In this document: piece after piece, positions 4,601 through 62,898 of the stretch | Numbering within the stretch: the stretch's first letter is position 1 | How the letters are laid out: every line of letters starts with the position of its first letter | Origin: Penicillus capitatus | Lineage: Eukaryota; Plantae; Chlorophyta | Assembly: GCA_965649825.1 (NCBI GenBank) | Contig: OZ287719.1 | Span: forward strand, 1 to 64,000 | Direction of reading: 5' to 3' | DNA length: 64,000 nucleotides | Notes under the pieces: model-generated | What the model saw: the letters and a program-made list of their open reading frames with translations, nothing else | The model's database searches: none | What the model was told of the DNA's origin: nothing | Program-made: the position numbers and the translations under genes

Positions 4601-6277
4601 ACGTCGATGCCTCGGATGGAAGCAGCGAGTCTCTGTGTAGCGGAATGGACGTCGTATCTGTGGCAACGGAGAGGGAACTGCGACGGGAACTCCGTCGCAC
4701 CGAGAGCGGCAGAAAGATCATCCTCGACGCGACCGAGTGGAAGCTCGAGGAGACTCTGGAAATTGCCTCGAGTGAGGTCTGCCTCGAAGGAGCGACGAAT
4801 GGCGTCGTCATACACTGTCCGCCGGACGAAAAGGGAAGTGCCGTCGTCGTCAGGTGCGCCGCGCTTCTTCAGGACGTTTAGCGCATCTTCTTTCCGAATG
4901 CAGGTCGACGCGTGCGGCGTTCTCCGATCTGACCTTTTCAGGTTGCCGTGGACACTCGGCAGTGGTGGTCGAGGCCAGACCAAGAAACGAGACGAAAGCG
5001 AGCGTCGTGTTTGACGGGGTCCGCTTCTCACAGAACGGCGACGTCGCGTCCGAAGTCTTCGGTGCCGGCGTCAGGGCGGATTCGTGTAGAGATGGGAACT
5101 GCAGGGCAAGTTCTCTGCACTTCACGAGCTGTCGCTTTTCAGGAAACCGCGCATTCTTTGGCGGAGCCATTTTCGCCAGCGACGCTGATGTTCTGTTCAC
5201 CGACTGCATCTTCGAGGAGAACGAAGCCGCTGTGTCGGGAGGGGCTGTTTACATCAGCGGCATGCAGCAGGAGGTTGGACTGAAGATGAAGCGAGTGATC
5301 TTCGCTAGAAACAGGGCCTACAACGAGACAAAAGCATTGAGAATGATGCTGAAAGCGTCGATACTATATGCTAACGAAACTTCGAGAACCGCAGGAGTGG
5401 GAGGCGCGGTTCATGCAAACAACATCGCCCAGATCAGAATCGAAGGTTCTGATTTCACTAAGAACGTGGCGTGCGGAGGTGGCGGTGCCATCGCTGTGTT
5501 TAACATGCAAAGGCTGCCGGCTTCGAATCTGAGCTATCCATTCAGTATTGATGATGGAACATTCTTCGAGAACGAAGCCTTCTGCGGGACGCAGCCCGAA
5601 GCATTGAGGTTGTATCTCTTAATTTTCTTCCAGTATCGTCTAGGAGGGGCATTGCGATTCGAAGCTTCAAATGATGAGTTCCTAGGATGGCGCATAAGAA
5701 ACAGTTCCTTCCTGGGAAATCGAGCACACTCAGGCGGCGCTGTTTCTCTTACGTCCGATATGCTCTCCGCCACAGAACACAAATTGGAGTCGTGTATGTT
5801 CGACAGCAGCATCGCTCTGTTAAGAGGAGGAGCGATCCTAATCAGCAGAGTTCGTCTGACAGTGAAGCATTCCAACATTACAAACGGCAGATCTGTGCTC
5901 GGTGGCGGAATCTACAGTCATAACACGGGTCGAGTGACGTTCACCGAGGATACTGAGGATCCATCAGTCGATAGCATTATCGAAGGCAACGTGGCCGGTG
6001 GTGGAGGTGGCATCAGTGCAGACGACAGTAAGTAACGTGCCATTCGCAGAATATGGTTACCATGCTGTCATTCAGGTGCGTTGGATCTCGCAGCTCTCAC
6101 TTTGCGGAACAACACTGCCCACTGGATGGGCGGAGGTATTCGTGCAGAGGATACAAGCGAGGATGTTAACCTCAGCGGCATCACCGTCGAGGACAATCGA
6201 TCGCCGGTCGGCGGAGGAGCTATCTTCCGTTCCCTGTCAAACGTCCTTGTCACATCACACAATGGAAGGCCGACCGT

Positions 6278-6581
6278 TGTCGCGTAGGGTTTTAGATGGA
6301 AACAATTTAAACGGTGGGCGCACGTAAACCTTTGAAACGTAAAGTCTTACAAACGAAAGACAAGATCTGTACATCTACAACGCTTTTATAGGGTACTTTA
6401 TTTTAAGTAACAAAAAGGAATATTCTGCGAAGATTCCGGAATCTGCTTGGAATCTGTGACGTAGAGCCGCGGGTCTATTTGTGGATGGAAGCTATAGAGA
6501 ACCTACGACCTGTCACTTGGAGATCGACACAAGTGTAAGTAGATGAGCGCATTATCGTGAGCGCTACGCCTTAACACGACA
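6278..6581 (-). repeat. 3' LTR (304 bp)
   Basis: Reads identical to 12802-13105; TG...CA termini; contains CTATAAAAG and AATAAA on the minus strand. Confidence 0.97.
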
Positions 6582-6602
6582 TGGGCCCACCTATCTTCTG
6601 TC
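6582..6602 (-). other. Putative polypurine tract
   Basis: Purine-rich GACAGAAGATAGGTGGGCCCA immediately before the 3' LTR on the minus strand; imperfect. Confidence 0.4.
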
Positions 6603-9596
6603 TAATCTCCGAAGGAAGTCACGATGGACATTGTGCAGCGTCGAACCGTTGGGCATACGGATATCCCAACGGTGGTCACTATGTTCCTTCACTACAACAC
6701 AAGGAGAGACCCATTTGGAGTATAGTTTGGAGTCGAGGCGGTCGGCCAACTTTGAGTTGTACCACGAGACCTCTGCTCCCACTTCCATGGGACGGTTCTT
6801 GACTTTCTTGTGGTGTCTTGTCTTATTTTGCTGGTGTGCCTTAATTATTCGTTGATAAGCTAGTCCTCGGTCGGTGTCCAGCTGTTGTGGACTAGTTATC
6901 GTGCCGTTCCGTTGTGTGCCAGTTAGAAGGTATTGTGGACAGAACAGAGTCGTACTATGAATCGTTCGGTTGATTTCATGCACGCTCGTGCTCACATGTG
7001 TCGTCCAATCACCCCCCTTTTCCGCCCATATCCTCCGAAGTCGATTTACGAGGTTTCGGTTGAACGCCTCGACAGTGCCTGCACTTTTGTGGGAATAGGT
7101 TGGGGTGTGTAGAATGTCTATTCCGTGCTGTGCGCAGGTACTCTCGAAGCTCCTGGCAATGAAGGCGCTTCCGTTGTCGCACAGGATCCTCTGTGGAGCC
7201 CCAAAGTTTCGTGCCCATTCGAGTACCAGCTTAATAGCCTGTGCTGCCGAGCACGTCTTACATGGGCGCCCCACGCCGAACTTAGTGAAAGCGTCGATCC
7301 CGGTAGCGATATACCGAAACCCATGGCTGCCACGGTTCAGCGGTCCTATGAAGTCTAGACACAGTGTGTGGTTCGGGGATGGACTGTCAATCATACCCAA
7401 GTCCACCTCAGATCGTGGGTTGCGAAACATTTGGCACGTCTCGCAGTTATTGACGTAATCTCGCACGTCATTGAAGTCGTTCGTCCAGCGGGTACCGTCG
7501 GACCGCAGGTTCAGGAATGTCTTCTTGACCCCGAAGTGGCCTGCATGCGCCTTCTTGATGAGCTCGGTCCGTTCTTCCGGAGTATAGGATACGGAGTTCA
7601 CTTGATATCCCTGTTGCTTCTTCTTGGTGTGAAATTCGACAGGTGCGTTGTCTCTCCATCGGCTGAGAAGATCCGCTATCACGTTGTCCTTCCCCTCTAC
7701 AAAACAGAAGTGGAGACGATCATGGGAAAAGTGGTGCCGGAGCCAGCAATGCTGTCTCTGGATCCGGAGGTCCTTGAACTTGTGCAGGAATGTCGGCTCC
7801 TTGAGCCAATTGACCGTAGCCATGTTGTCGGAGTAAACGAATACCTCCGTCTGCTTGATCACAAAGTAACATTCCTTCAAGGCCCGTACTATTCCCATCA
7901 ATTCTCCCAGAAAACTTCCGACCCTCTGTTTTGTCGTAAAAGATCCAAAGAGAACAGGTTGCAAGGTCGAGTTAAGCAAAACGTATCCGAACTGGTTGAG
8001 TGGGTTACCACACCAATCCGTATACAGATGGAATGGCCCCTTTCTTTCCAACGTCAGTCGGTACGTACTGATGCACAGAGATTGAACTGCGTCTTTGTAG
8101 ATCTCGTCGGCTTTGGTGTAGTCGTTGTGTTCGCGTTTCAGGAATGGCTTGAGCCGTGTAACGATCGCGTCGTATTTGTAACAGTACTGTGCCAGTTGCT
8201 GGCACAGACCCATGGCCTTCTGAACGTCGTGACGTGACGTGATTGTCGGCAACTTCTGGAGTATAGCCTGGGCCCTGTGGTAGGGGTTTAGCGTCCCGCC
8301 ACTGAGTTCGGTACCCAGAAAGCTCACCGATGTCTCAAACCAGTCACACTTTTGGCAGTTGATCGTCAGGCCGTATTCGTCAAAACGTTTTAATAAAAGC
8401 TTGGTCTTGTCTAGGAGTTCCTCCTCCGTTTCGCCGCCGATAAGTATGTCATCGAAGTATCGGACCACATCCAATCCTTGTAGGATGTGGGTCATGCGGT
8501 TATTGAAAAGCTCCGGACTGACGTTGACGCCTTGCGGCAGTCTCCGAAAGCCGTACGTCACGCCGTTCCAATGTAGTGCAAAGAAAAGCGAGATATTGTC
8601 GTCGATGGGGATGGAGCCGTAGCCGTGAACAATGTCCACGATGGTGTATACGGTCCACTTGGGATCCACCTTCTGGATGATGTTGGACACCGGAATGATG
8701 GTCCCCCCTTGCGTTCCTTCGAGGTACGTGTTGATGTCGCGGAAGTCAATGGTGGGCCGGATCTTGCCATTCGGTTTGCGTATAAAGTTTAAAGGTGCTA
8801 CGACAGCGTGTATTGCCTCTGCAACAGACAGCTGTCGTATAACACCCTCCTTGTGTAGCGAATCGATCTCTTTTGAGATCTCTTCGTTGGTGAGATCTGA
8901 GACGTAGTTCTCCCTCCAGCATGGCTTAGGCTCACCGTGCCAACAAAGATCCCTGTTGCGTACCCTGATGTCCCACAGCCTGCTGGTCGTCGGGCGAATG
9001 GTGTCCGAAAAGACCAGGGGAAATTCTTCTCTTAGCCGAGCCACTGTTGCATCCTTGTCTACTGGTGTAAGAACGCTAATGTTGTTAACACGCTTGGTCT
9101 TCACTTTCAGCGGGTACTCCGTTCCATCGACGTCGGTGATGGAATCAATGTTTCCTTTAGCACAGCACAGTCGCATCTTGCTGGTGACATGCTGTGGAAC
9201 ATCGGATTGGTTGAAGATTACCACGCTGATCTGACCATTGGCGTGTACCTTGACTTTGCAGAAGATGTTCTTGTTATGAGTACAGTCGAAAAACGCCCTC
9301 CATTCCGTTGTCTCGGTAAATTTGAAGGGTAAGATGATGCGGCGGCTCCGGAAGGGTCCCAGCACAAAACTTCTCCCCGCCATGAAGACGATCCAGTCGT
9401 TTTGTTTGAACGGGAATAATCCCCGATCGATGGATTCGGTGACTTGGAGTGGTGGTGAAGGTGATGGTTCTTCTTTCTGTCTCGCTCGAGGTGCTTCATC
9501 ATTCCAGTTGGCTCTTACTAGTACCAAACGTTTCGTCTGCGGTTCTTGCGTGTCGTCATGTGCCTGCTGAAAAACAGGCGTGTACCTTAGTTTTTT
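6591..9596 (-). CDS. pol: Pol (pseudo-dUTPase, RT, RNase H, integrase), in the -1 frame relative to ORF1
   Basis: RT: RPTIDFRDIN, LPQG, YFDD. RNase H: LYTD, ELMGIV, YSDN, NVIADLLSR. Integrase: HAGH...CETC, LCLDF, DNG, VEAFNR. Frame is open from the slippery site; the track start at 9527 is a TTG. Confidence 0.95.
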   Translation of the reverse strand, partial: KKLRYTPVFQQAHDDTQEPQTKRLVLVRANWNDEAPRARQKEEPSPSPPLQVTESIDRGLFPFKQNDWIVFMAGRSFVLGPFRSRRIILPFKFTETTEWRAFFDCTHNKNIFCKVKVHANGQISVVIFNQSDVPQHVTSKMRLCCAKGNIDSITDVDGTEYPLKVKTKRVNNISVLTPVDKDATVARLREEFPLVFSDTIRPTTSRLWDIRVRNRDLCWHGEPKPCWRENYVSDLTNEEISKEIDSLHKEGVIRQLSVAEAIHAVVAPLNFIRKPNGKIRPTIDFRDINTYLEGTQGGTIIPVSNIIQKVDPKWTVYTIVDIVHGYGSIPIDDNISLFFALHWNGVTYGFRRLPQGVNVSPELFNNRMTHILQGLDVVRYFDDILIGGETEEELLDKTKLLLKRFDEYGLTINCQKCDWFETSVSFLGTELSGGTLNPYHRAQAILQKLPTITSRHDVQKAMGLCQQLAQYCYKYDAIVTRLKPFLKREHNDYTKADEIYKDAVQSLCISTYRLTLERKGPFHLYTDWCGNPLNQFGYVLLNSTLQPVLFGSFTTKQRVGSFLGELMGIVRALKECYFVIKQTEVFVYSDNMATVNWLKEPTFLHKFKDLRIQRQHCWLRHHFSHDRLHFCFVEGKDNVIADLLSRWRDNAPVEFHTKKKQQGYQVNSVSYTPEERTELIKKAHAGHFGVKKTFLNLRSDGTRWTNDFNDVRDYVNNCETCQMFRNPRSEVDLGMIDSPSPNHTLCLDFIGPLNRGSHGFRYIATGIDAFTKFGVGRPCKTCSAAQAIKLVLEWARNFGAPQRILCDNGSAFIARSFESTCAQHGIDILHTPTYSHKSAGTVEAFNRNLVNRLRRIWAEKGGDWTTHVSTSVHEINRTIHSTTLFCPQYLLTGTQRNGTITSPQQLDTDRGLAYQRIIKAHQQNKTRHHKKVKNRPMEVGAEVSWYNSKLADRLDSKLYSKWVSPCVVVKEHSDHRWDIRMPNGSTLHNVHRDFLRRLDRR

Positions 9597-12500
9597 GAAA
9601 CGGTAACGTTGTGGATCAAGATTTTGTTGCCTTTGTCGTCATACACGCAGTCCTCATCGCAGTTGAGCTGCAATTTGAAGGCTTGGAGGGCCTGGAGTCC
9701 TAGAATAGGACGTTGGACACCCTCGCAGACGACAAAGGGTATCTTCGCGCCTTTGTTTCCTAGGGTACACAGCATGCAGACCTCGCCGCTTGTACCAGTC
9801 GTCTGGTTGTTGAAACTCGTCACGTTCTGGACCTTCGCAGACCTGAGCACTAGATTGTGCTTTCGCGCCAGCTTGGCCGGAAGTACATTCGTCTCGGCCC
9901 CGGTATCCAACAGACAAGATATTTTTCCAGCTATGTCCTCCATAGCAAGCATGACGTTGTAACGCGCCATCCTCGCAGAGTTCCGACCCTGAGCTGGAGT
10001 TGTCTGGGATACCTTTTTGGAATCCTGATGTCTAGGAGTTCTTGCGATTGATGGGCAGTCTCTTTTAGAATGGCCCTTACGTCCGCAGTTCTCGCAGGTG
10101 TGTCCAACTTCTTGACGTACATGATGCTTGCCATCGGCCCTGGCGTGCTCTCGACTGTCCCGTTCCTTCTGTAGACATTCGTCGATGATCAGTTGCACGC
10201 GTGGCCAGTTGTCTGCATCTCCCCATGGCAGACCACGCAGACGTGATTGGATTTGAGCGTTCGCAATATTAAAGATTCTCTCCGTCGCCGTAGCATACTT
10301 GACGGGGTCATCTATCAATGCGAGCAGCTTCGACATTCTGCGTGTGAACTGCGAGAGATTCTCTTTACGTTTTGGCAACATCCTGTGTACGTTCTTTACG
10401 GTGGGACCATCTTTCTCGACGCGTCTAGTGGGAGTCTGGCTTTTTGGAGTGTGCGGAGTTGCAGCTTTACTAGGGCGACGATTGTCTGAGTCCTGACGTA
10501 TTTGTTGACTCTGTTTCCGTTCGGTTGTTCCTTGGCTCTCGTGCGATGGCTCAGGCTCGGGGTGATGTAACTCACATCCGACTTGCTGAACTCGCATCCG
10601 ATCCTCAACCGCTTCTACTCGTTGCCCGATAGTAAGTATGCTGGCCTCCACAACCTCTTCCAATCTCCCTTGTCTATTGACAAGTCTGTCCTCGAGTTCT
10701 GCAGCGCGCCTCATAAGCCCATCTTGCATCGCTTGAACACTTTCCATCAAGGATTGTATCAAGTTACGTTGTTCAGTGTCTTGGCGGACTTCCGGCGACG
10801 GGTCTGGGTGGATTTCCGTCACTGGATTTTGTTGGTCTGCCCGTCGTGGTGCCGAATGTTGCGGTGGCGGAGGCGACTGAGATGGCGCGACAGGACGAGA
10901 AGGACTGGATGACGGCGTTGACTCCTGCGGCGGTGACTGGGATGGCGGCGGTGGCGACTGTTGTGTAGGCGTCGGTGGTGACTGCTCTTGTGACGACTGC
11001 TGAGTGGTCAGTTCTTGAGTCAGTTGCTGCGCCTGAGCCCTATGTCCCCGCATCAGATTCCACACGATTCTGAGTAACCAGCAAATCCCCTGGGTTATGG
11101 CTACGACTCGCATCACAACCTTGCGGATGTTCCTGAATACATTCAAGATCCATGCAGCGACCTTGTATAGAAGCATAGCAGCGCCTACCAACTGCCAGCC
11201 GTTCCCCGTCGCCAGGGCACTACGAATTGCTCTGAGTCCAAATTTATCCCAAAGCGTGCCTAACATCCACGTGACCGCGTTATCTCGGGCACCGGTTAGC
11301 CATTTTATAGAGCGGTCGATGAATGTATCATTCCCGTGATTGCTCTCCCAACCGTTAGCCTGGCTTTCGCAGATGCAATCGTCTAGAGCCGTCTTCATGT
11401 TGCTTGTGTGTTCGTTGATCTTGTTTATTGTCTCGCGGATATTATTGAGAGTGTCATTGAGGTGCTGCCAATCGACGTTAGAACTCTTAGCTTGTGACTC
11501 TTGTGACGTTTCAGGTCCTTGGCTGTCTGTCGACGAACCATTTACCGTGATGTTCAGGAACTGGGTGATGCCGTCCAAGGTCTCTGCGACGTGTCGCACT
11601 TCTCCTACGAGAGAGGACTTCCTAGATGGGAAGTTGTTGATGATCGAGACTGTCGCAGTCGTCAACAAGCTCGCTGGAGAGAATACGGACAACACACCTC
11701 TGTTTGTCGCCCAGTTGACGATCCCATGAGCAGTAAGACCTACGACAGCACTAGTGATCATTGCGTCAATATAGTCTGGCCAAGTGATGTCGACTCCCAT
11801 TCTGAAGTCGGGGATCATGGACCAAGATTGCCCATCTTCGACAGGTAGAGCATCTCCCATCTCGTGCAAATTGAAGACATTTTCTGGGGGGAGTTCTTGT
11901 TCTGTCCATTGGTCTTCGGACTCTTCGGACTCTTCGGGATCGGATCGCGGAGCCTCTTCGTCGAATAGATCTTCCGCCAATTCTACCGGAATCTCGTATT
12001 CGTCATACTCGAGTTCGTATGCTTCTGCGCTGGGTTCCGTGTCCAGCGGTAAGTCCGTATTATTCTGCACGTCTTCATGTTCTGCGACGGGGATAGCGAA
12101 CTCAAAACGCCTGCGGAGGGCTCTCGCCGATCCTGCTATGGTACGTCTGTCTTCTTCGGCATGTGTGTCTTCGCACACGAGGTCGTGTACCTTCTGTCTA
12201 GACGCGTCCAGCAGTGTCTTTTGTTCCCACGTCTGTGAATGAGTGCCAGGGATCAGTAGAAAGAAGGACATTCCTGTAGCTAGCAACGGTTTTCCTCCCC
12301 AATAGACCAGGGAACCTTCGCCGAGAAGCATGATCAGCATATTGGCTTCCTCGTACGTAATGCCTTCGCTTGCGTCATAGAAGATGATGCCGTTAGGGCA
12401 CTCTTTGACGAAGACCGCGATCTCCCTTTGAATTATTCTAGCCTCATCCACAGATTTGGATTGCGGTTTAATATACTTGAAACAACTACTCTTTTGCAGA

Positions 12501-12802
12501 CTAGGCTCAGTCTTGATTCCGTTAACCAGCGAGTCGCATGTACTTGTCGTACAGTAGAGAATTGTAGACGTCGCTTTATCGTAAAAATTGTTGCCTACCT
12601 TGTCGTTTATACTACGGGCAAGGTTATCGACATACTGATCTATCCAGTCTCCGCCACCGCGGACGTTTTCCTGGATGCTTGTTAGGGTTTTATTCCGTAA
12701 CCCTATTATTCCATCCTTCCAGCCAAACCATGAGCCGTGCGTGACGGCGGCAAAGTGTAGAAGAACCCACAACAGCATTGGGAGCACTCGCTCCGAAACC
12801 AT
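9587..12802 (-). CDS. gag: ORF1 polyprotein, 1071 aa: signal peptide, AAA-like lumenal domain, ectodomain, TM, Gag (CCHC), aspartic protease
   Basis: N-terminus MVSERVLPMLLWVLLHFAAVTHG; zinc knuckle CENCGRKGHSKRDC (10055-10096); protease CLLDTGAETNVL...PILG; hydrophobic span at about 11050-11200. Confidence 0.9.
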   Translation of the reverse strand: MVSERVLPMLLWVLLHFAAVTHGSWFGWKDGIIGLRNKTLTSIQENVRGGGDWIDQYVDNLARSINDKVGNNFYDKATSTILYCTTSTCDSLVNGIKTEPSLQKSSCFKYIKPQSKSVDEARIIQREIAVFVKECPNGIIFYDASEGITYEEANMLIMLLGEGSLVYWGGKPLLATGMSFFLLIPGTHSQTWEQKTLLDASRQKVHDLVCEDTHAEEDRRTIAGSARALRRRFEFAIPVAEHEDVQNNTDLPLDTEPSAEAYELEYDEYEIPVELAEDLFDEEAPRSDPEESEESEDQWTEQELPPENVFNLHEMGDALPVEDGQSWSMIPDFRMGVDITWPDYIDAMITSAVVGLTAHGIVNWATNRGVLSVFSPASLLTTATVSIINNFPSRKSSLVGEVRHVAETLDGITQFLNITVNGSSTDSQGPETSQESQAKSSNVDWQHLNDTLNNIRETINKINEHTSNMKTALDDCICESQANGWESNHGNDTFIDRSIKWLTGARDNAVTWMLGTLWDKFGLRAIRSALATGNGWQLVGAAMLLYKVAAWILNVFRNIRKVVMRVVAITQGICWLLRIVWNLMRGHRAQAQQLTQELTTQQSSQEQSPPTPTQQSPPPPSQSPPQESTPSSSPSRPVAPSQSPPPPQHSAPRRADQQNPVTEIHPDPSPEVRQDTEQRNLIQSLMESVQAMQDGLMRRAAELEDRLVNRQGRLEEVVEASILTIGQRVEAVEDRMRVQQVGCELHHPEPEPSHESQGTTERKQSQQIRQDSDNRRPSKAATPHTPKSQTPTRRVEKDGPTVKNVHRMLPKRKENLSQFTRRMSKLLALIDDPVKYATATERIFNIANAQIQSRLRGLPWGDADNWPRVQLIIDECLQKERDSREHARADGKHHVRQEVGHTCENCGRKGHSKRDCPSIARTPRHQDSKKVSQTTPAQGRNSARMARYNVMLAMEDIAGKISCLLDTGAETNVLPAKLARKHNLVLRSAKVQNVTSFNNQTTGTSGEVCMLCTLGNKGAKIPFVVCEGVQRPILGLQALQAFKLQLNCDEDCVYDDKGNKILIHNVTVSKN
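9590..9596 (-). promoter_or_regulatory. -1 ribosomal frameshift slippery heptamer A-AAA-AAC
   Basis: ORF1 ends TCA AAA AAC TAA. The -1 frame (AAA AAA CTA AGG TAC...) runs without a stop into pol. Confidence 0.85.
12787..12801 (-). other. Putative primer-binding site (TGGTTTCGGAGCGAG)
   Basis: Starts with TGG directly after the 5' LTR; primer tRNA not identified. Confidence 0.5.
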
Positions 12803-13105
12803 GTCGCGTAGGGTTTTAGATGGAAACAATTTAAACGGTGGGCGCACGTAAACCTTTGAAACGTAAAGTCTTACAAACGAAAGACAAGATCTGTACATCT
12901 ACAACGCTTTTATAGGGTACTTTATTTTAAGTAACAAAAAGGAATATTCTGCGAAGATTCCGGAATCTGCTTGGAATCTGTGACGTAGAGCCGCGGGTCT
13001 ATTTGTGGATGGAAGCTATAGAGAACCTACGACCTGTCACTTGGAGATCGACACAAGTGTAAGTAGATGAGCGCATTATCGTGAGCGCTACGCCTTAACA
13101 CGACA
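12802..13105 (-). repeat. 5' LTR (304 bp)
   Basis: Reads identical to 6278-6581; followed on the plus strand by TSD CCGT. Confidence 0.97.
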
Positions 13106-16100
13106 CCGTTTTCAGAAACAACACCAGTTTGGCCGGAGGGGGTTTGCTCTATGACTGCGGAGATACGATCATGTACACGATTAAGGTATGTTGTTCTGTC
13201 TTCTGTTTCTTTATCAAATCCAACAAAGGAGTTGTGTACACAGGTCGAAAATTCCAGTTTCGTGGGCAATCGTGTTTTGCCGAGGACGGATTCCGACTTT
13301 GTGGCGTTGGTAGAGGAAGGCAACACCTATGAAGTTTATCCACCAGCCTTGGTCAACATCTTGAACAGCGGTGGCCCGGTTGATAACTCCACGGACGACG
13401 TGAACATCGGGACCAATCATTTTGAGGGACACGGTGGCGGTGTTGCCTTCTCTCTTATCGAAGTCCGACCGACCGCCATCGTCCAGATCCTGTTCCAGAA
13501 CGTTGTCATCGAGGAAAACGAAGCCGTCGTCGGGGGTGTGTTCCCAATTGGATGCCATCCACTCACCACAAACCTCTTCTGCAGGTGGCATGTCTTCCGA
13601 CATGACAGGTCCTTTTTGGAATACAGATGACAGGCCTAACTGCGCTTCGATGATCATTGGTTTCGAAGTCTGCCAGAAGTTCGAGGTCCGCAACGTCACG
13701 ATCGTCAAGAATAAGGCAGAGTTCGCCGGTGGTGTGTTCGTCTCTCACCGCGACGGAATTGTCGCCTCCTGTGGTCCTGAAAAGGAAAGATTCACAGCTA
13801 GCGACCATGCCAGTGCAGTTACTGGAACAGACGTGGCATCTCGCTATTGTGTGAAGATCCAAGGCAACTCGCGCGTCGATGGCAAGCTTGACACGGCTGA
13901 GGCAGCAACACGAGCCGTGCAGCTGCACGTCGAAGGAGGGAGAGACCGGCTGAAGCGAGTGGCCAGTGGAGAGGCTCTCGCACTGCCATGCCAAGACAGG
14001 CTGAATTCAAGCTGCTCAGTGCCATTTCGCATCCATGTGAAGGACGCGTTCAATCAGACGATCGACGGCGGCATCGAAGACGCGAACCTGGATGTCAGCA
14101 TCACCTCCGACGACATCGTCGGAGACCAGAGGTACTCGGCGGAGAAGGGAATCGTGACGATCGACAACACGCAAGCATGGGGCATCAACCGGGACAGCAC
14201 AGTGACCATCGCGAGTCGAAGAGACAGCAGCATCAAGGTCGAGCTGCCCCTGTCCACGAGGGAATGCTATCCAGGAGAGATCGAGCACGACGACGTCTGC
14301 AACGCGTGTCCGACGGACCAGTACAGCTTCTTACCGTCTCTCAAAAAGTGCGAGAGCTGTGAAGAGAATGCAGAGTGCGGCGGCGGTGCTGTGTTGGTGC
14401 CGACGGAGGGTTACTGGCATTCCACGCCTTTCTCCCCGGTCTTCCACAAGTGCACCTACTTCACCGCCTGTCACTACGACAGAAGACGCGAGAAGTTGAT
14501 GCAGTTCTACGAAGATCCGGAGGAACTGAAGAGGCAGTTGGACAGACTCGGTCGCTATCTGGAGAACAGCGAAATGGAAGAACCTGACTTCGCAGACTAT
14601 CAGCAGTGCGACGAAGGTTACGGTGGCCCCCTCTGCGGCTCCTGTCAGCAGGGATACGGTCACTCCTACACGGGAGAGTGTGAGGCATGTCCAGAGCGAA
14701 GATCGGCAGCGCGACTCCGTTTCTTCTTCACCGTTGTCTTCCTGTTCTTTGTAGTCGGCAGCAACTGCATCATCACACTGGTGTCTTCAAGAGCACGAGT
14801 GACGCTGGCCAAGCACGAGATGAAGACTGCAGCGAGGACTGTGACAAAAACGCATTCGGCAATCACTTCTGCCAGAAATCCATCAGCGACAAGCTCGAGG
14901 CTCATCTCCCGTCGCTCAGGTATTCAGCAAAGATACCTGCCTTGAATTCCTTCCATCGACTGTCCCGTTTAGGCTTCAGCGACGTCGGTGGACATCCAGA
15001 CACATCGACGCGGCTCATCCTCGCGCAGCAGCTTGCGGCCACGATCATGCTGACGGAGACTCTGAAGGCAAGAATACTTCCCTACCGTTCTCATCGAACA
15101 CGTCAACTGTCGACAGATTCTGATCAACTATCTCCAAGTCACTGGCGCCGCCCTGCGTCTGCAGGCCGACTGGAGTCCACTGTTAAAATCCCTCCTTAAA
15201 ATTGAAGGTGAAGCGAGCAGACGCGTTCAGTATTTCTCACCTTTTGTGCTGTTCAGCTTCGCTGGTCGGGTCACTGACTGCTGTCATGTCCGCCCCCTAC
15301 GAGTGCTGTCATCAGAATGTCGACATGTCCGCCTCGGTCGCTGCAGCGTGGATGAGACTGGCGATACCATGGATCGTCCTGCCCGGCCTGCTCATCACTC
15401 TTGTCGCCATCTGGGCTGCCGTCTGTGCCTGGACGGCGTGCAAGCAGAAGTGGAAGGCAGACGCTGACAATACTTTCACTGCCGAACGCCTGATGACCTA
15501 CGCCATCATCATCTCCATCGTCTCGATGCACTTTAACTACATCAACGTGGTCAGAGAACTCCTCAAGGCCGTCAACTGTGTGGACATGGCCGATGCCTAT
15601 GAAGAAGTCGGCTTCGACCACCCATTTCGAGACTACGCGACGGAGACTGTCGATCGCACCGTCTGGGCCGAGGACACAGAACTGGCGTGCTTCCGAGGAT
15701 CCCATCTCCCGCTCGGCGTCATCGGCATCGTCGGTCTGGTCGCATCCTTGCTGGGCATCGTCGCCATCATTCTCTGGCTGCCGCTGAACAGGAAGCACAA
15801 GGGGAAGACCACCTTCATCGAGAGGTACTGGTTTCTGTACCAAGCCTACAGGCGCGACTGGTACACAGTCGCCTGGGAGTCTGTCATTCTGGTTAGGAAG
15901 TCAATGATCGCCGCGGCCGTCGTGTTCTCCGTCCACATGACGCCGAACCTCCAAGCCTCCATCTGCGCAGGAGTCCTGACATTCGCTCTGGCCGCGCACG
16001 CCATCTTCATGCCCTTCAAGATCCCAGAAGAGCATCCGAACGTCCCGGACTACGCCGGCGGTCTGTTCCGCATCGTCCGTCTGCCGTCACTTGCAAGGAG

Positions 16101-17176
16101 GTGGGTCTCCCTGAACAACGCCGTCGACCTCAATACACTCGAGATCGTGTCTCTGGCAGCCTCGGCCAGCGTCTTCTATTCGGCCGTAGTGCTGCACGAC
16201 GACAGCTCTTCCGCTCTGGGCCGCCTGTTCATGTCCCTCTTGGCCTTCTCTGTCAATGCCTCTTTCGCAATCTATCTGATCTACCTTCTGTATACTGGCC
16301 TGCACGTGCTTCTGGATCTCAAGCTGGAGCTGAAGAAAGTGTACATTTTGGATGGAGAGAACAGCATGGGACCGTTTGCCTTAGCAAGGAAGGCATATGC
16401 ATTGTTTCAGATCTGGAGAGACGAGAAGAAGAAAGACGTATCCGCCACAGACGTCTCGGACACCGATCCTGAAGCGCAGCCGGCTGAAGAGTAGTCATCG
16501 CATCATATACAGCGCATTCGAACCACTGCGAGGGTGGTTCTTTAGGTGGCGCAACAGAAGCCATCGGGTTCTGATATGATAAAGCATTTTTTGGGGGTGT
16601 ATGAGACAGGCACTCAGGCATCGTTGTTGGGTGCCTCATAACTCTTCAATAAGTCATTTTTTCTGAGATCATTCTCAGTTGATCCGTTTTTTCGATGCCT
16701 TATGCACGGCATTGTTCGAAGAGGACAGTTTTTGTGGTGTTTTGTTGCGGTTGCTTCTGTCTAAGGAGCGACACGTGCCTGTTTATCCATAAGATTACAT
16801 TTTTGTTGTCGAATCAGTCGTAAGTCACATTGAACTAGCAAAGCACGATTGTTTGGATCTAAAAGATCTGACTCTTTAAGCGATTTATGTTTTCGAGCGA
16901 TCTCTCCGACGCGGACATCTAACTTTGATTGAGCATTGAATCCGAGACATTGCAGAGACTCTTTGTGTTAATGTGATGTCGAGCAGCGCATGACAGAGTC
17001 CTTGTTCCGTACCTGTGACCATTGATTCTTTTCACTCGGATCGTCTTTCAAACGGATCGACACGCTCTGAGGACTTCTATGTCATCGACGGTGGCACTTT
17101 TTAACCAGCGGAGGGAGCTCAAGAAAGGACATTGCAATGCCTTTGACGCTGAAGGCAGCAACGCGGCAAAAACGAC

Positions 17177-17735: not shown

Positions 17736-19163
17736 CTCTTCGACTAACTCCAAGCTTTCTTTTCTTGCGCCGGTGTTCCAGTTTCCACGTTTCTATTGTG
17801 CAGCCGTCTTGTCGACTCCGTGAGTTCACTTGGGAGACTTGTTCTAACTGTTTCTTCGACTCCGTGATCTCGGGTTGCGATAACTGTACGGTTGTTACGA
17901 GCCCTTAGGCTCTAATGAAATTCCGTCTTGCCTTTGCGTCGGCTGACCGGCGCCGGGCACCGGTGCTTCTCCCGCTAACACGCCAGAATACCGAGAAACC
18001 CTCTTCGGCCACGCACCCAGACTCGACTACAATCCGACCCAAGACCCAACGAGCCCAGACGACGGAAGCCATTCCATTCGCGGCATTGGCCAGGATATAC
18101 AACACGGACTGGATGACGTCTCTGAAAGGCAAGACAATCGAGCACACCAGTCCTAGAACCTAAGCCGACATAAAGGTCCGACTTATCGAACGCCCAAGAC
18201 AAAAATGGCCAACACAACGAACCAAACACGACCAGAACAAAGAGAAAGAGCACCACCCTACGGGGCCACCTAAGAATGACATATACAACCGTGGACAGAT
18301 AAACTGGACGAGCTAGCTCCCCAACAGCTTGGGAAGATCCCGAGTACTCACTAGAAGAACACAACACAGACGTCATCCAAACAGCGAACCACCCCAAGTC
18401 ATGGAGTGGAAGCAACTCCGTCTGGCCACAGACGGCACTACCATCACCAGGAAAACGAAAAGGAAGCGAGCGGTATTCTGATAAAGAAAAAAGAACAGAT
18501 TGACTGATTGCGACTCGAGCCGCCAGATCGAGAAAGCGTCATCGTTAAAGCGACACTAGCTGCGTTTAGGTTCGCCGACAAGCCAGGACTGGTGGCGGAT
18601 GTGACGAAGAAGAAGCGGTCACTGTCACGTCGGTCATCATACGGGGAGTCCGTTTCGCTGAGAAAAGGTGTATCGGTGAGCAATAACCGCTTCTTACCTC
18701 TTCGCCCCCGAGGGCCGATAGGAAAGAGCAGCACAACAATGAGACGCAGAGTGCCGCAGACGTCGTAAAGCATCAACTGTTCCACCATGGAGTGGTAAAT
18801 TCCTAGCTAGTTTGTGAAGATCAACTCGCTGTAGGTATTCACTCTATCGAATGCTTTTCGTCCGTGTCGAAGTCGAAGTCGTTCGACTATTCGTGAAGCG
18901 CGGGACGTGTCACAAGTTTCCTTGATCAACGCCCACATCAATCGCCTGACTCAGGAGGCGCCGTTCCTCTAGTTTGTTTTGCGATACCTTTTCGGTTTGT
19001 CTGCTACGTTTTCTTACAGGTCTGGTTTGAGTTATGCGCGAACTTTTAAGCTGTGTTGAGTGCAGCGAGTAACGGTGTTCTCGTGAGTAGATGGCATGTG
19101 CAGATGTCCAGTCGGTGCGAATAATGTGGACCGGAAGATTATCAACTTGGATACAGCAAAGAT

Positions 19164-19206
<43 letters not shown>
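19164..19206. repeat. (GACA)n microsatellite
   Basis: About 10 perfect units; the left copy has only about 2 units at the equivalent site (near 1780). Confidence 0.95.
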
Positions 19207-19341
19207 CTTCTCGAAGAGGCGTACATAGAACCAACCTATATCGTCAAAGTCAATCGTGTATGCGTAAAAACGAACCAATCGTCAAACGCGCGCGAAGCAA
19301 GAACTTAGTGAGATATAGGGAATGCCATTCATTACATACCA

Positions 19342-19971
19342 TTGGAAACAGCCCGTTCGATTCATAAGGATCGAACTCGACTTGGCAGAGAAACAGCCAG
19401 AGCAGTGAATCTGATTGGAAACATCCCGTTCGATTCATAAGGATCGAACTCGACTTGGCAGAGAAACAGCCAGTGTGAATTGAATCCGAATGGGGCCGGT
19501 TCGACTTATGGCGCCGAACCCGTCTTGCCAGAGAAACAGCCAGTGTGAATTGAATCCGAATGGGGCCGGTTCGACTTATGGCGCCGAACCCGTCTTGCCA
19601 GAGAAACGGCCAGAGTGAATTGAATCCGAATGGAGCCGGTTCGACTTATGGCCGCCGAACCCGTCTTGCCGGAGAAACAGCCAGAGCAGTGAATTGAATC
19701 CGAATGGAGCCGGTTCGGCTTATGGCCGCCGAACCCGTCTTGCCAGAGAAACGGCCAGAGTGAATTGAATCCGAATGGAGCCGGTTCGACTTATGGCCGC
19801 CGAACCCGTCTTGCCGGAGAAACAGCCAGAGTGAATTGAATCCGAATGGGGCCGGTTCGGCTTATGGCCGCCGAACCCGTCTTGCCAGAGAAACGGCCAG
19901 AGAGTGAATTGAATCCGAATGGAGCCGGTTCGGCTTATGGCCGCCGAACCCGTCTTGCCAGAGAAACAGCC
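19342..19971. repeat. ~71-bp tandem array: 2 type-B plus 7 type-A hairpin units
   Basis: TGAATTGAATCCGAATGG recurs at 19476, 19546, 19616, 19690, 19761, 19832 and 19905. Confidence 0.92.
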
Positions 19972-20914
19972 ACGGCGTATGAGATGCCTGAACACCTTCC
20001 GATACCTTTATCCAATTCATGCCCGTCACAAACCCATGCAACCAGTCGATTCATGAACACAACGTCTCTTCCGTTGCCCCCGGCAAACAAAACAATCGAA
20101 ACCTTGTCTCGAATGGGCGCTTTCCAGTCTCGTCGGCATCCCAAAACAAACGGCACAAACCTGTCCCGTGGCGATCTAACCGTCCGACCAGGGTACTTAT
20201 CCCGCATCCCCTAGACCAATTCCCAGCGCCTCCGCACTAGACCTACCGCCGGATGCAAACCCCGTGGAGCGAAGTAACACACCGTCTAGTCTACCACTCT
20301 CCCTCGTGGACGCCAACGTCTTCCTCAAGCTGACGACGAAGCAGAGCTTCGTTGCGAAACCGACGCAAGAGATCCACGGACCACGGCTCTTGAGAAAAGA
20401 ATCCACGCAGAACACCCGAAGCGTGCTTGCAGTGGCAACGGAAAAACAAGAAGAAAAAACAACAAGCCTACGACACACACCGATAACGGAAAGACGGCGC
20501 TGGCGCGGGAAAGAAAAAACCACGTTTCCTACGAAGACACTCAAGAAAAGAAAAAACGCGCGTCGAGCCATGGCGAACGAAAACCTCCGGTCAGCACGCC
20601 GCAGTCAACCGAGGAACGTGGCCCCACGTCAATCCTCGTTCCCAATCCGTCATCACCCCACGCTCTCCACTCCTCGCACTCCATGGTCGTCGTGCTTTGG
20701 CCTCGCCGTGTATTCGCCATCCATGTTCTCCCCTTTATCACACGTCACCAAGTTACGCACTAGATCGCCACCTCATCCTCTTTTGCCGACCCTTGACGTT
20801 TCTTCTCTCCTCGCCCGCCCATCTCGACAAGGTTCCGCCTTCCAGAGGTAAAGGCCTGGCCGATACAACCCCCGACGAAGCCTAGTCCTCACGCCACACC
20901 GCTTCAACGGTCTC

Positions 20915-22036
20915 CTACTTCCTCGACCTCTTCCGAGAGGCCTTGGATGAACCCTCCGCCTCACCGTCTCCCTTTCGCTTTGCGTCGTCTGCCTTCTTCA
21001 ACTTTCTTAGCCGTTCCCTCCTCGCCGCTGTGTCGCGAAGGCCGTGGTCCTCCTTTGCCCTCTTTGCCCTCTTCACCTCATCTTCGTACGCCATGGCGTA
21101 GCCAAGGCGTTTAGAACCGCGGCGTTCAGAAACCACCACTGCTTCCATGACCACGTCTCCGTCTTCGTCAACCTGCGGCTGCTCGGCGACCGGCTGCGGC
21201 TGCTCGGCGACCGGCTCCTGCGGCTGCTCGGCGACCGGCTCCTGCGGCTGCTCGGCGACCGGCTCCTGCGCGTTCACTTCCACTTCTTCGACCGCCGGCA
21301 TGCCTTGTACGACGTGCACGGGCGTCCCTTCGGCGACCTCCACGACCTCCGCCGGCGTCCCGTCGGCGGTTGACAACACCGGTATGCCTTGTACGACGTG
21401 CACGGGCGTCCCGTCGGCGACCTCCACGACCTCCGCCGGCGTCCCGTGGGCGATTGACAACACCGGTATGCCTTGTACAACGTTCACAGGCGTCCCGTCG
21501 GCGACCTCCGCCGGCGTTCCGTCGCCGACCAGCGGTTCAAAGGTTACCAAGAAGTTTACGAAGTTATGTGCTAAGACTACAAACTCATGTGCTACTTGGC
21601 GTCCCTCGTGCATTGCGCTCATCAAGGCGTCAATTGTTGAACTCAAGTATTCCACGAAACGCAGAATTTTTAGGAATTCGTAGTCGTCGTTGGCGTAGGC
21701 GACTAAGTTGTTCGACACCACAGCTTGCCAAAAAAAGTTGGCATAGTCCGCCCAGGTGCGAAGATGCACATCAGCGGGGCCAGGTTCGTCGGCTCCTCCT
21801 GTTACACGATGCGGAGCCAGTTGGCGGCTGATGTTAAGGACTACCAGAAATTTATCTGGGTCTCTCCCTTCATACGGCGTTCCTATGCTTTCCCAACCGG
21901 GCACGTATGAAGTGAACGTGTCAAAAAGATTCGACTGGAGGGCGTTGAAGAACTTGCGGTACCCTGTACGTTCGACCGGTTTGTTGTCCAACACTTGCAG
22001 AACGCTAACAATTTGCGAGGACACGGACGAACTCAT
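20915..22036 (-). CDS. Hypothetical ~373-aa protein with internal 28-aa and 8-aa repeats and a basic NLS-like tail
   Basis: Uninterrupted ORF from ATG 22036 (MSSSVSSQ). Repeats GTPAEVVEVADGTPVHVVQGIPVLSTAD and QEPVAEQP. C-terminus conserved in the left copy. Confidence 0.65.
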   Translation of the reverse strand: MSSSVSSQIVSVLQVLDNKPVERTGYRKFFNALQSNLFDTFTSYVPGWESIGTPYEGRDPDKFLVVLNISRQLAPHRVTGGADEPGPADVHLRTWADYANFFWQAVVSNNLVAYANDDYEFLKILRFVEYLSSTIDALMSAMHEGRQVAHEFVVLAHNFVNFLVTFEPLVGDGTPAEVADGTPVNVVQGIPVLSIAHGTPAEVVEVADGTPVHVVQGIPVLSTADGTPAEVVEVAEGTPVHVVQGMPAVEEVEVNAQEPVAEQPQEPVAEQPQEPVAEQPQPVAEQPQVDEDGDVVMEAVVVSERRGSKRLGYAMAYEDEVKRAKRAKEDHGLRDTAARRERLRKLKKADDAKRKGDGEAEGSSKASRKRSRK

Positions 22037-26936: not shown

Positions 26937-28926
26937 ATGTCGACATTCCGACGCATCGAACGTGGATTCGCGATCATCGGTTTGGCAGCGACGGCGGCTG
27001 CGGGACTTGGATGTTATGCACTTTATTCCTACCACAAGGTCACATCATTTTCCCTCGGTCACCTCGACGTGTCCCTTTCACAGGACTCGGATAAAAGCCT
27101 CTCGGATCTTGGTCGTCCGACAGGACTCCGGGGTCGAAAACTGCCGAAAGAATTTATTCTACATTTAGACCTAGACCGAACGACCATCACAGATGCTCCC
27201 TCATCCATGACGTACCTGTCCCATCAACAGCCTCCACTAAAGGCCACACTTTTCTCCGTGTAGACCCTGGGAATCCTTTCTGAGTGGCGAGACACAGACG
27301 CTGTCGTTAAGAACCGTCGTCAAGAGCATCGAATCTGCCGCTGAGGATGAACGGGTGAAAGGGTTTCTGACCACAGGTCACATCATCTCACACATTTCCC
27401 ACGCAATGGTGTGATCAGGGACTCATGGAGTTCATGGCCTAGCCATGATTCAAGAACTGCGAAACGCCGTATGCAAATTTAATCAAGCCGGAAAGCGACT
27501 CTCCTCTGTTTTCCATACCGACACGTTCGGTGAAGCCGACAACAAGACACTGGTGTACTACTTGGCATCCGCCTACAAAAAAATCTTTATGCAGCCAACG
27601 GGGCGCATGTGTACCACCGGGTTCAGTCTCAGCACTCCCTTTTTCAAAGATCTATTGGAGAAATGGCGCATTAAGTTTCGCGTCTGGGCCAAAGAGGAAT
27701 TCAAGACGGCCTTTAATCTCTTTACTGAGAAAGAATTCACAGTTCCGCACAGGGAGCAGATGACCTGGATACTGGACGGCATTTTTAATCAGGTGACGGC
27801 AGGGATCTCTGAATCGAGAGGCATGTCACAGAACGAAGTTGAGGCGGCCATCTCTGCCGCACCGATGTCTGCTCAAGAAGCTCAAGCGAAGGGTCTGCTC
27901 GACAGGATCCTGTACAAAGATGATATCTGGACACACATGAGTGATGGTCAACAACTGCCGACGGTCTCAATCAGGGACTACGCTCGGATCAAGGCACAAG
28001 AAGAGAGAAAGCGCAAGAAGAAGCCAGAGGTGGCCGTGATGAATCTTTCGGGTCCTATCTTTGTGGGATGGCAGCCGCCTTCTTCTCAACATCCGTCGAT
28101 CTGTTCTGCCAGAGTCGCTGAGCAGTTCAATCAATTAGCCAAGAACGAAAACATCAAGGCTGTGGTGCTGAGATTGGACTCGGGAGGTGGATCCGCTGTG
28201 GCGTCCGACAGCATCCGACAGCACATTGCCAAGATCAAAGATGCAGGAAAGTATGTCGTTGTGAGCATGGGCAATATTGCTGCGTCAGGAGGATACTACA
28301 TCTCCCTCGGTGCCCATGCCATCGTCGCCAATCCTGGTGTGGCGGCGCCGCCACCTTGGATCGTGTGATGTGACAGGTCTTGCTGTTTAGGGACGCTGAC
28401 GGGGAGCATCGGCGTCATCGTGAGCAGTCCATTTCTCAAATCCGCTCTGGAAGAGCACGGCATTTCGGTGGAGGTTTTGAAGAAAGGCAACAATGCAGAT
28501 ATGCTGTCGCCGTTCACCGAGATCACTCCAGAACAGCAGACCATCCTCGATCATCTCCTCGATACAGTCTACAACGATTTCATCCGCAAAGTGTCAGAAG
28601 CGCGTAACAAGCCGATCAGTACGGTTGAGTCCAAAGCCAAGGGACGTATCTGGTTGGGTGCCGATGCCTATGAAGAAGGACTGGTGGATGAGTTGGGTGG
28701 ATTGAGTGAGGCCATCGAACGGGCCAAGAGCGGTGCCCATCTGGCCTCGGATGCCTGTGTCATGGAGTATCCCATTCCCAATCGATTTGTTCAAGTGCTG
28801 AGTTCTTTGGTGCACCAGTTCCATCTACAAGTCATCCTTCCCTTTCCTCTTCCCTCAATGGCATCATCATCCTCTTTCGAGTTGTACAGCTTTGAGGCTG
28901 AATACATTCTTGGCTCTCTCTCATGA
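26937..28926 (+). CDS. SPPA: Signal peptide peptidase A / protease IV (S49), multi-exon
   Basis: Motifs KAVVLRLDSGGGSAVASD, VVSMGNIAASGGYYIS, TLTGSIGV, KGRIWLGADAYEEGLVDELGG. Confidence 0.92.
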
Positions 28927-40704: not shown

Positions 40705-41327
40705 CTCGGTTGACTGCGGCGTGCTGACCTTGAGTTCTGCGATCGCCATGGCTCGACGCGCGTTTTTTCTTTTCTTGAGTGTTTTCGTAGGATATGTGGT
40801 TTTTTCTTTCCCGCGCCAGCGCCGTCTTTCCGCTATCGGTGTGTGTCGTAGCTTGTTGTTTTTTCTTATCTGTTTTCCGTTGCCACTGAAAGCACGCTTC
40901 GGGTGTTCTGCGTGGATTCTTTTCTCAAGAGCCGTGGTCCGTGAATCTCTTGCGTCGGTTACGCCACGAAGCTCTGCTTCGTCGTCAGCTTGTGGAGGAC
41001 GTCGGTGTCCACAAAGGAGAGTGGTAGACTAGACGGTGTGTTACTTCGCTCCACGGGGTTTGAATCCGGCGGTAGGTCTAGTGCGGAGGCGCTGGGAATT
41101 GGTCTAGGAGATGCGGGATAGGTACCGTTGTCGGACGGTTAGATCGCCAAGGAACAGGTTTGTGTCGCTTGTCTTGGGATGCCGACGAGACTGGAAAGCG
41201 CCCATTCGAGACAAGATTCCGATTGTTTTGTTTGCCGGAGGCAACGGAAGAGAGGTTGTGTTCATGAGTCGACTGGTTGCATGGTTCGTGACGGGCATAA
41301 AATGGATAAAGGTTTCGGAAGGTGTTC
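40705..41327 (+). mobile_element. Third, internal fragment of the unclassified repeat element
   Basis: Matches 565-1187 and ends just before the point where the hairpin array would begin. Confidence 0.85.
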
Positions 41328-62816: not shown

Positions 62817-62898
62817 GATGCGATGGCCGAGTGGTCTAAGGCGCTGGATTTAGGCTCCAGTCCTTTCGAGGGCGTGGGTTCAAATCCCACTCGCATCA
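62817..62898 (+). tRNA. trnL-UAG: tRNA-Leu (anticodon UAG)
   Basis: Acceptor GATGCGA/TCGCATC, anticodon arm CTGGA-TTTAGGC-TCCAG, long variable arm, T arm GTGGG-TTCAAAT-CCCAC. Confidence 0.97.

Follow-up and report, generated by a model that had tools for sequence, protein, structure and literature searches.

A predicted LAP1/LULL1-like pseudo-ATPase domain in the Gag chain of a Ty3/gypsy retrotransposon from the green alga Penicillus capitatus

The AAA+-like domains of LAP1 (TOR1AIP1, PDB 4TVS) and LULL1 (TOR1AIP2, PDB 5J1S chain B) have no Walker A motif, a broken Walker B motif and no small C-terminal domain, and they keep a finger arginine (PMC4358337, PMC4999309) that TorsinA does not have (PMC4358337). 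Torsins carry Walker A as GxxxxGKN and Walker B as DE (PMC7175109). LAP1 is composed of a nucleoplasmic chromatin-binding region, a membrane helix and a lumenal domain (PMC7773337, PMC4358337) in which a disulfide connects the C terminus to helix 1 (PMC4358337). In both LAP1 and LULL1, conservation is confined to the torsin-facing surface (PMC4999309, PMC7773337). The background given here and below also draws on PMC3198171 and PMC7889174. In full-text literature searches, with most subscription journals and supplements outside their scope, we encountered neither a retrotransposon carrying a domain of torsin or LAP1 type nor a LAP1-like family from algae. Here, we describe a predicted domain of this type in the first open reading frame (ORF1) of a long terminal repeat (LTR) retrotransposon from Penicillus capitatus. 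The element spans 6,828 bp (6278–13105, minus strand) of the 64,000-nt stretch that was analysed (contig OZ287719.1, positions 1–64,000; hereafter the window).

The domain occupies ORF1 residues 56–273 (12080–12733, minus strand) and was characterised using profile searches, hhalign, AlphaFold2, Foldseek and VIA-align. ORF1 runs from stop to stop over 9587–12898 of the minus strand (1103 aa); residues are numbered from the first Met of that frame, and subtracting 32 gives the numbering from the likely true start at 12802. The original prediction placed a degenerate, nucleotide-free AAA+ domain of torsin/LAP1 type at 12087–12690, which corresponds to about residues 70–271. All of the motifs that it quoted are found in ORF1, and their assignment to the helix before strand 1, the Walker A and Walker B sites, the hairpin and strand 4, and the arginine-finger site agrees with a 14-row alignment described below.

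The lone domain sequence has no match to a Pfam or NCBIfam family at E ≤ 10 and gives nothing in BLAST against the Escherichia coli ClpB-D2 domain. Neither this sequence nor a three-row alignment finds an AAA chain among PDB sequences at E ≤ 10, and hhalign of the three rows against ClpB-D2 is insignificant: 14 of 150 column shuffles score as well, and 2–3 of 194 decoys reach 20–22.8 or more. Two language-model look-ups returned AAA_2, torsin (clusters at 0.79–0.86) and unnamed chlorophyte clusters, all below 0.9, which we use as leads only and not as evidence. A profile of three variants searched against 1.84 billion proteins yields 14 matches at E ≤ 0.001. Six of these (P0050, P0053, P0054, P0057, P0058 and P0059) resemble fragments of related elements: P0050 carries a fused integrase and P0057 runs on into the acidic linker that follows the domain. 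Five others (P0052, P0055, P0056, P0060 and P0061; E 1.8e-10 to 3e-4) are free of retroelement domains. Two of the five, P0055 and P0061, are named genes of Chlorella, and P0052, P0056 and P0060 are called cellular without a view of their genomic context. Conversely, a profile built from the five cellular rows alone recovers ORF1 101–273 with E 9.3e-13, with none of 520 bacterial ORFs below E 240.

The 14-row alignment consists of the query, P0006 and 12 of the 14 profile matches, P0051 (a 3237-aa repeat protein) and P0049 (a fragment matching the window) having been removed; it contains no Clp, torsin or LAP1 sequence. In hhalign comparisons with 32 AAA groups, it scores 32.3 against 80 Clp-D2 domains (ClpB-D2), a value reached by none of 120 shuffles, and 23.7 against the runner-up. 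The ClpB-D2 alignment is colinear across 176 columns. Among PDB sequences, the 14-row profile matches Skd3 (E 1.3e-6 and 7.7e-6) and, weakly, ClpB, ClpC and ClpA. The AAA+ signal exceeds chance only with these homologue rows in place.

A model from the lone sequence (predicted local distance difference test score, pLDDT, of 44) matches generic P-loop and helicase folds only. With the 14 rows, AlphaFold2 gives a pLDDT of 84 and a predicted template modelling score of 0.85. The predicted model has the AAA+ order of helices and strands, with five strands, a hairpin ahead of strand 4 and nothing past strand 5. The five-stranded core, the helix before strand 1, the pre-sensor-1 hairpin and the homology to Clp-D2 are those of the AAA+ HCLR (Clp-D2) clade. 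Foldseek ranks Skd3 first (E 3.9e-6), followed by TorsinA at ranks 2–4 (5.6e-6 to 1.4e-5), and also finds ClpB-D2 (1.7e-5). In VIA-align, LULL1 (5j1s_B, assigned to LULL1 by length and numbering) is first among 48,161 chains with Z 13.9, a root-mean-square deviation (rmsd) of 3.9 and 198 of 218 residues aligned, in a ranking that holds one row per entry and no row for TorsinA. LAP1 gives Z 13.9, rmsd 3.7 and 196 of 218 residues; Skd3 (12.3), ClpB-D2 (12.2) and TorsinA (11.5) score lower. The best match in a viral structure library is phage ClpA, with no retroelement name among the matches listed (15 of 50 rows unnamed). The model, the hhalign score and both structural searches bear out the degenerate, nucleotide-free AAA+ domain of the original prediction, and we regard it as nearly certain that the modelled domain is a LAP1/LULL1-like AAA+ fold with the status of a dead ATPase.

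The predicted active site has lost its catalytic motifs. At the Walker A site, Cys116-x4-Cys121 (12536–12553, minus strand) replaces the P-loop residues; 11 of the 12 rows covering the first column and 12 of the 13 covering the second have Cys, and all intact rows show a C-x4-7-C pattern. This pair likely forms a disulfide spanning the pocket. The disulfide of LAP1 has no counterpart: the invariant cysteines among variants are 116, 121, 139 and 167, and none lies beyond strand 5. The Walker B site reads YDA, with the aspartate retained and the glutamate absent in element rows; both residues are lost in four of five cellular rows. The domain has no equivalent of the ClpB sensor-1 asparagine, and the small C-terminal domain (lid) with sensor 2 is absent. 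Strand 5 ends at residue 271, with the acidic linker after it, and P0056 and P0060 terminate at this strand. The domain is not a torsin, given the state of its Walker A and B sites, the missing small helical domain and the lack of a PF06309 or torsin sequence match. It differs in the same way from the active ATPases of the HCLR clade (Skd3/CLPB, the D2 domains of ClpB, ClpC and ClpA, and TorsinA), which have Walker A, Walker B and the small domain and share with it the pre-sensor-1 hairpin; by sequence, Skd3 and ClpB-D2 are the best matches.

The arginine-finger position is preserved. Arg262-Arg263-Arg264 (12107–12115, minus strand) are arginine in 9/10, 9/10 and 10/10 rows, respectively. Arg264 pairs in the 14-row alignment with the arginine of the ClpB NRID motif, which we take to be the arginine finger, and Arg263 would fall on LAP1 R563 and LULL1 R449, provided that no gap occurs within the final ten residues of the alignment. 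The loss of Walker A, the degenerate Walker B and the finger-like end motif were all correctly read in the original prediction. The domain frame stays open and the three arginines are kept across variants that are only 54–55% identical. These arginines, the Cys pair and the E-G hairpin motif are also kept in element lineages that are ~32% identical (P0050 and P0057). We excluded the RRR motif as a convertase site; it lies inside the fold, ahead of strand 5, and is common to the cellular family. Together, the motif losses and the retained arginines suggest a pseudo-ATPase with its finger side intact, the combination described for LAP1 and LULL1 and unlike that of TorsinA.

The context of the domain differs from that in LAP1 and LULL1. 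There, the domain ends a type II membrane protein; in the element, it lies N-terminal to Gag, behind a putative signal. The LAP1 and LULL1 domains directly follow a membrane helix, and the hydrophobic segment ahead of the element domain (residues 33–55) may be cleaved or may stay as an anchor. The cellular protein P0055 shares the LAP1 arrangement. This protein (KAI7844878.1, Chlorella ohadii, E 6.6e-8) and P0061 (KAI3432348.1, C. vulgaris, E 3e-4) are annotated as SAP domain-containing hypothetical proteins; both have the Cys pair, the E-G hairpin and the RRR motif, are 22–24% identical to the element domain and contain no Gag. P0055 consists of a SAP-like start, a basic region (26 K/R in 146 residues), a hydrophobic helix (2.26) and the domain in tandem, its arginine motif weakened in the second copy, an order that parallels the chromatin-binding region, helix and lumenal domain of LAP1. 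P0061 has a SAP-like start, in a gene model without a clear helix.

A trimmed tree groups the four element rows with P0052 in a single branch (99/98) nested among cellular rows. The domain was very probably captured from an algal host gene family, within the limits set by a distant root and few rows. The donor suggested in the original prediction is thus likely in its general form, a host family, and not in its identity, the sequence relatives being a chlorophyte family and then Skd3/ClpB-D2 and not torsin. The P0055/P0061 family comprises unannotated chlorophyte proteins that we propose as a candidate algal counterpart of LAP1. It may share ancestry with LAP1 or may have arisen from a Clp-D2 domain through an independent loss of the ATPase motifs, and its sequence leans toward Skd3/ClpB-D2. 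The capture thereby reveals a chlorophyte family with a predicted LAP1 fold and one member with the LAP1 layout, in a group outside the metazoans from which the torsin system is described. Chlorella or Chlamydomonas could show whether LAP1-type activators predate animals or arose twice from Clp-D2 domains.

The remainder of ORF1 suggests a membrane protein. An upstream in-frame ATG (12898) lies only 16 bases past a TATA-like box (12914–12908), too near to serve, and the next ATG, at 12802, is taken as the likely start, being the first past the expected transcription start and located at the LTR end. Residues 33–55 (12734–12802, minus strand) form a likely signal peptide or signal anchor, assigned from hydropathy (peak 1.56); the segment is 90% identical in three variants, and P0050, P0053 and P0059 also have hydrophobic N-termini. 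The domain is followed by the acidic low-complexity linker, two moderately hydrophobic segments of putative membrane status (376–397 and 402–420; 11639–11773) and a likely lumenal helical region (11264–11638) with N-glycosylation sequons at 449, 453, 481 and 523 and a heptad stretch. This region has no Pfam match above cut-off; sequons 481 and 523 are kept in all five variants examined. A likely membrane anchor (567–591) and a second hydrophobic or amphipathic segment (594–616), with four basic residues between them, occupy 11051–11200. Downstream are a Pro/Gln linker, a coiled coil, a Gag-like block (836–915) that we infer to be capsid-like from its position, a CCHC zinc knuckle (934–950; zf-CCHC E 3.4e-4, above cut-off) and an aspartic protease (9683–9922; PF13975 E 6.9e-6, slightly below cut-off). 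The Gag-like block and zinc knuckle (10049–10393) are 81–100% identical between variants. All of these features are on the minus strand.

How retrotransposon cores reach chromatin behind a closed nuclear envelope is an open question, and in many green seaweeds the envelope remains closed during mitosis. Each Gag chain of the element appears to carry both a membrane anchor and a captured domain of nuclear-envelope type. We tentatively favor, at somewhat less than even odds, a reading in which this chain is an endoplasmic reticulum (ER) membrane protein whose pseudo-ATPase docks a host AAA+ partner at the nuclear envelope. ORF1 would be inserted into the ER during synthesis, with the pseudo-ATPase and the glycosylated region on the lumen side, helix 567–591 spanning the membrane, and Gag, the protease and the frameshifted reverse transcriptase (RT)–integrase on the cytosol side. 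With Gag and Pol cytosolic, particles would therefore assemble on the ER or nuclear-envelope membrane, and the element protease would release the core. The lumenal domain would imitate the host SAP–membrane helix–domain protein and bind the partner ATPase of the latter, acting as a docking surface that presents its conserved arginines; binding would position the particle at the nuclear envelope or recruit membrane remodelling. The lumenal position, as in LAP1 and LULL1, is probable from the sequence features above, and action through a host ATPase is somewhat less likely than not. It seems unlikely that green algae possess their own LAP1/torsin-like envelope system, made up of a SAP–membrane helix–pseudo-ATPase activator and a lumenal ATPase, which the element would hijack through a Gag-fused activator mimic to carry its particle across the nuclear envelope by a membrane route and not the pore. 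The RRR motif, the Cys pair and the signal are mutable handles on these proposals.

Several observations weigh against the favored reading. Torsins and their cofactors are described as metazoan (PMC7175109). Identity to LAP1 and LULL1 is only 8–9%, neither is present in the best 50 Foldseek matches listed, and a shared loss of inserts may account for their Z advantage of 1.6. No torsin, LAP1 or LULL1 chain appears at E ≤ 10 in the PDB sequence searches, and the domain family seems nearer by sequence to Skd3/ClpB-D2 than to torsin or LAP1. PF06309 (torsin) and PF05609 (LAP1) do not match the domain in Pfam searches; in five bacterial genomes, PF06309 has no match above cut-off. The torsin/LAP1 likeness of the original prediction holds by structure and not by sequence. 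With LULL1 and LAP1 as the top structural matches and a sequence nearer Skd3/ClpB-D2, we use the term ‘LAP1-like’ and do not claim LAP1 orthology. For the cellular family, the SAP matches (19.8 and 17.9 bits) are below the Pfam cut-off of 23.9, and P0061, P0056 and P0060 have no 19-residue window at 1.6 or more. The trees, from which rows under 120–140 residues were excluded, are rooted with a distant outgroup, and an earlier tree, trimmed less, did not settle how element and cellular rows are ordered. The topology is predicted from hydropathy and sequons, and Gag would be lumenal if 594–616 also crosses the membrane. Finally, all five cellular homologues lack Walker A, and no active lumenal ATPase partner is found among them.

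This last point also suits an explanation with the same fold, origin and lumenal site and no ATPase, which we consider fairly unlikely. The domain would pack head to tail, either with further copies of itself or with the pseudo-ATPase family of the host, clustering ORF1 chains in the membrane or tethering them to the nuclear envelope, and the arginines would serve the interface. The tandem domains of P0055, with their weakened second arginine motif, are in keeping with such packing. Against this packing, three near-invariant arginines at the finger position, in element and cellular rows alike, fit catalysis in trans, and conservation in LAP1 and LULL1 is restricted to the torsin-facing surface.

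The variants are mosaics. P0004 shares the domain (97%) and differs in the anchor (54%), and P0005 and P0006 have a different domain allele (54–55%) beside a nearly identical anchor (98–100%). This exchange of alleles on near-identical Gag backbones, and vice versa, would suit a surface protein, and within residues 340–620 (11039–11881, minus strand) hydrophobic segments, heptads, a CxC pair, a Trp-rich stretch and an anchor follow one another much as in an envelope protein. The N-terminal 620 residues could be an envelope protein fused to Gag, its parts running from the signal through the globular domain and acidic linker to the hydrophobic segments, glycosylated heptads and anchor. Cores would bud into the ER, with the pseudo-ATPase as a surface attachment domain and the hydrophobic segments and heptads as the fusion part, and the element would spread between nuclei, cells or individuals. 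Residues 340–620 have no Pfam envelope or fusogen match at E ≤ 10, and the arginine cluster is retained as in the cellular family; we consider this explanation improbable.

ER routing of structural proteins, or a membrane accessory to them, has been described for mouse IAP, yeast Ty1 and the Drosophila MDG1 sORF2 protein (10.1101/2022.06.22.497016, PMC11952523, PMC3945221). IAP gained retrotransposition through a short host-derived ER signal alone, Ty1 Gag is ER-targeted with no recognisable signal, and sORF2 is a separate protein of 63–107 aa. Unlike that of the present element, the Gag chain of none of them is described in these sources as containing a folded lumenal domain of AAA+ type. Tat/Ogre elements also carry extra ORFs and are not known to have such a domain either. 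By analogy with IAP, only the signal and anchor might matter, with the AAA+-like domain a passenger or folded spacer. A 515-aa derivative (P0050/P0063), which occurs on more than one contig, retains the signal and the greater part of the domain, minus the RRR motif, fused in frame to integrase, as a passenger might allow. The survival of the RRR motif, the Cys pair and the E-G hairpin in the ~32%-identical lineages is difficult to reconcile with a passenger role, which we judge very unlikely, and docking to a host AAA+ partner remains our preferred reading.

The element is an intact Ty3/gypsy retrotransposon. Its 5′ LTR (12802–13105) and 3′ LTR (6278–6581), each 304 bp on the minus strand, are identical at 304 of 304 positions, and a 4-bp target duplication, CCGT, flanks the element at 6274–6277 and 13106–13109. 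A likely primer-binding site (12787–12801, minus strand) starts with TGG; the ORF1 ATG (12802–12800) overlaps both this site and the LTR end. ORF2 (6591–9638, minus strand) encodes RT, RNase H and integrase by Pfam, which gives the order protease–RT–RNase H–integrase, and its best PDB sequence is Ty3 Gag-Pol (E 6e-48); Pfam finds no chromodomain in ORF2. A slippery heptamer, A AAA AAC (9587–9596, minus strand), immediately precedes the ORF1 stop where ORF1 and ORF2 overlap, and ORF2 is likely expressed by a −1 frameshift there. The downstream hairpin is no more stable than shuffled sequences (z −0.26).

The window contains one copy of the element, which interrupts a host gene within its open reading frame. 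A single contig from run X1 connects both flanks with the element absent, and the summed contig depth over the element exceeds that of the flanks in runs X1 and X2; run X4, without cover over 11681–12421, carries no weight as evidence. The empty site and the excess depth are compatible with a recent insertion and fit a member of a multi-copy family. Among the named relatives of Pol, one from Caulerpa lentillifera is the nearest (61% identity). Four of 690 candidates are full-length relatives of ORF1, and two word-index searches with ORF1 returned the same four close relatives and none further. Viral contigs, and metagenome contigs searched with the Pol alignment, contained no related loci.

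The interrupted host gene (4776–6277 and 13106–16494, plus strand) encodes repeats of the GG(A/G) type, a part rich in cysteine and, at the C terminus, a hydrophobic part, and its reading frame stays open when joined across the empty site. Long inverted repeats at 3–2451 and 18519–21175 (longest arm 1275 nt, 97%), with tandem subrepeats of 70–74 nt, surround this gene and the retrotransposon, as if the gene had been captured by a large DNA transposon; part of the repeat recurs at 40732–41284. Elsewhere in the window, the frame at 27415–28368 (plus strand) presumably resembles signal peptide peptidase SppA, judging from a motif. A 1063-aa HEAT-repeat frame at 34854–38045 (plus strand), with a weak HEAT_2 match, resembles adaptors of the HEATR5 type. 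A tRNA-Leu (TAG) gene lies at 62817–62898 (plus strand).

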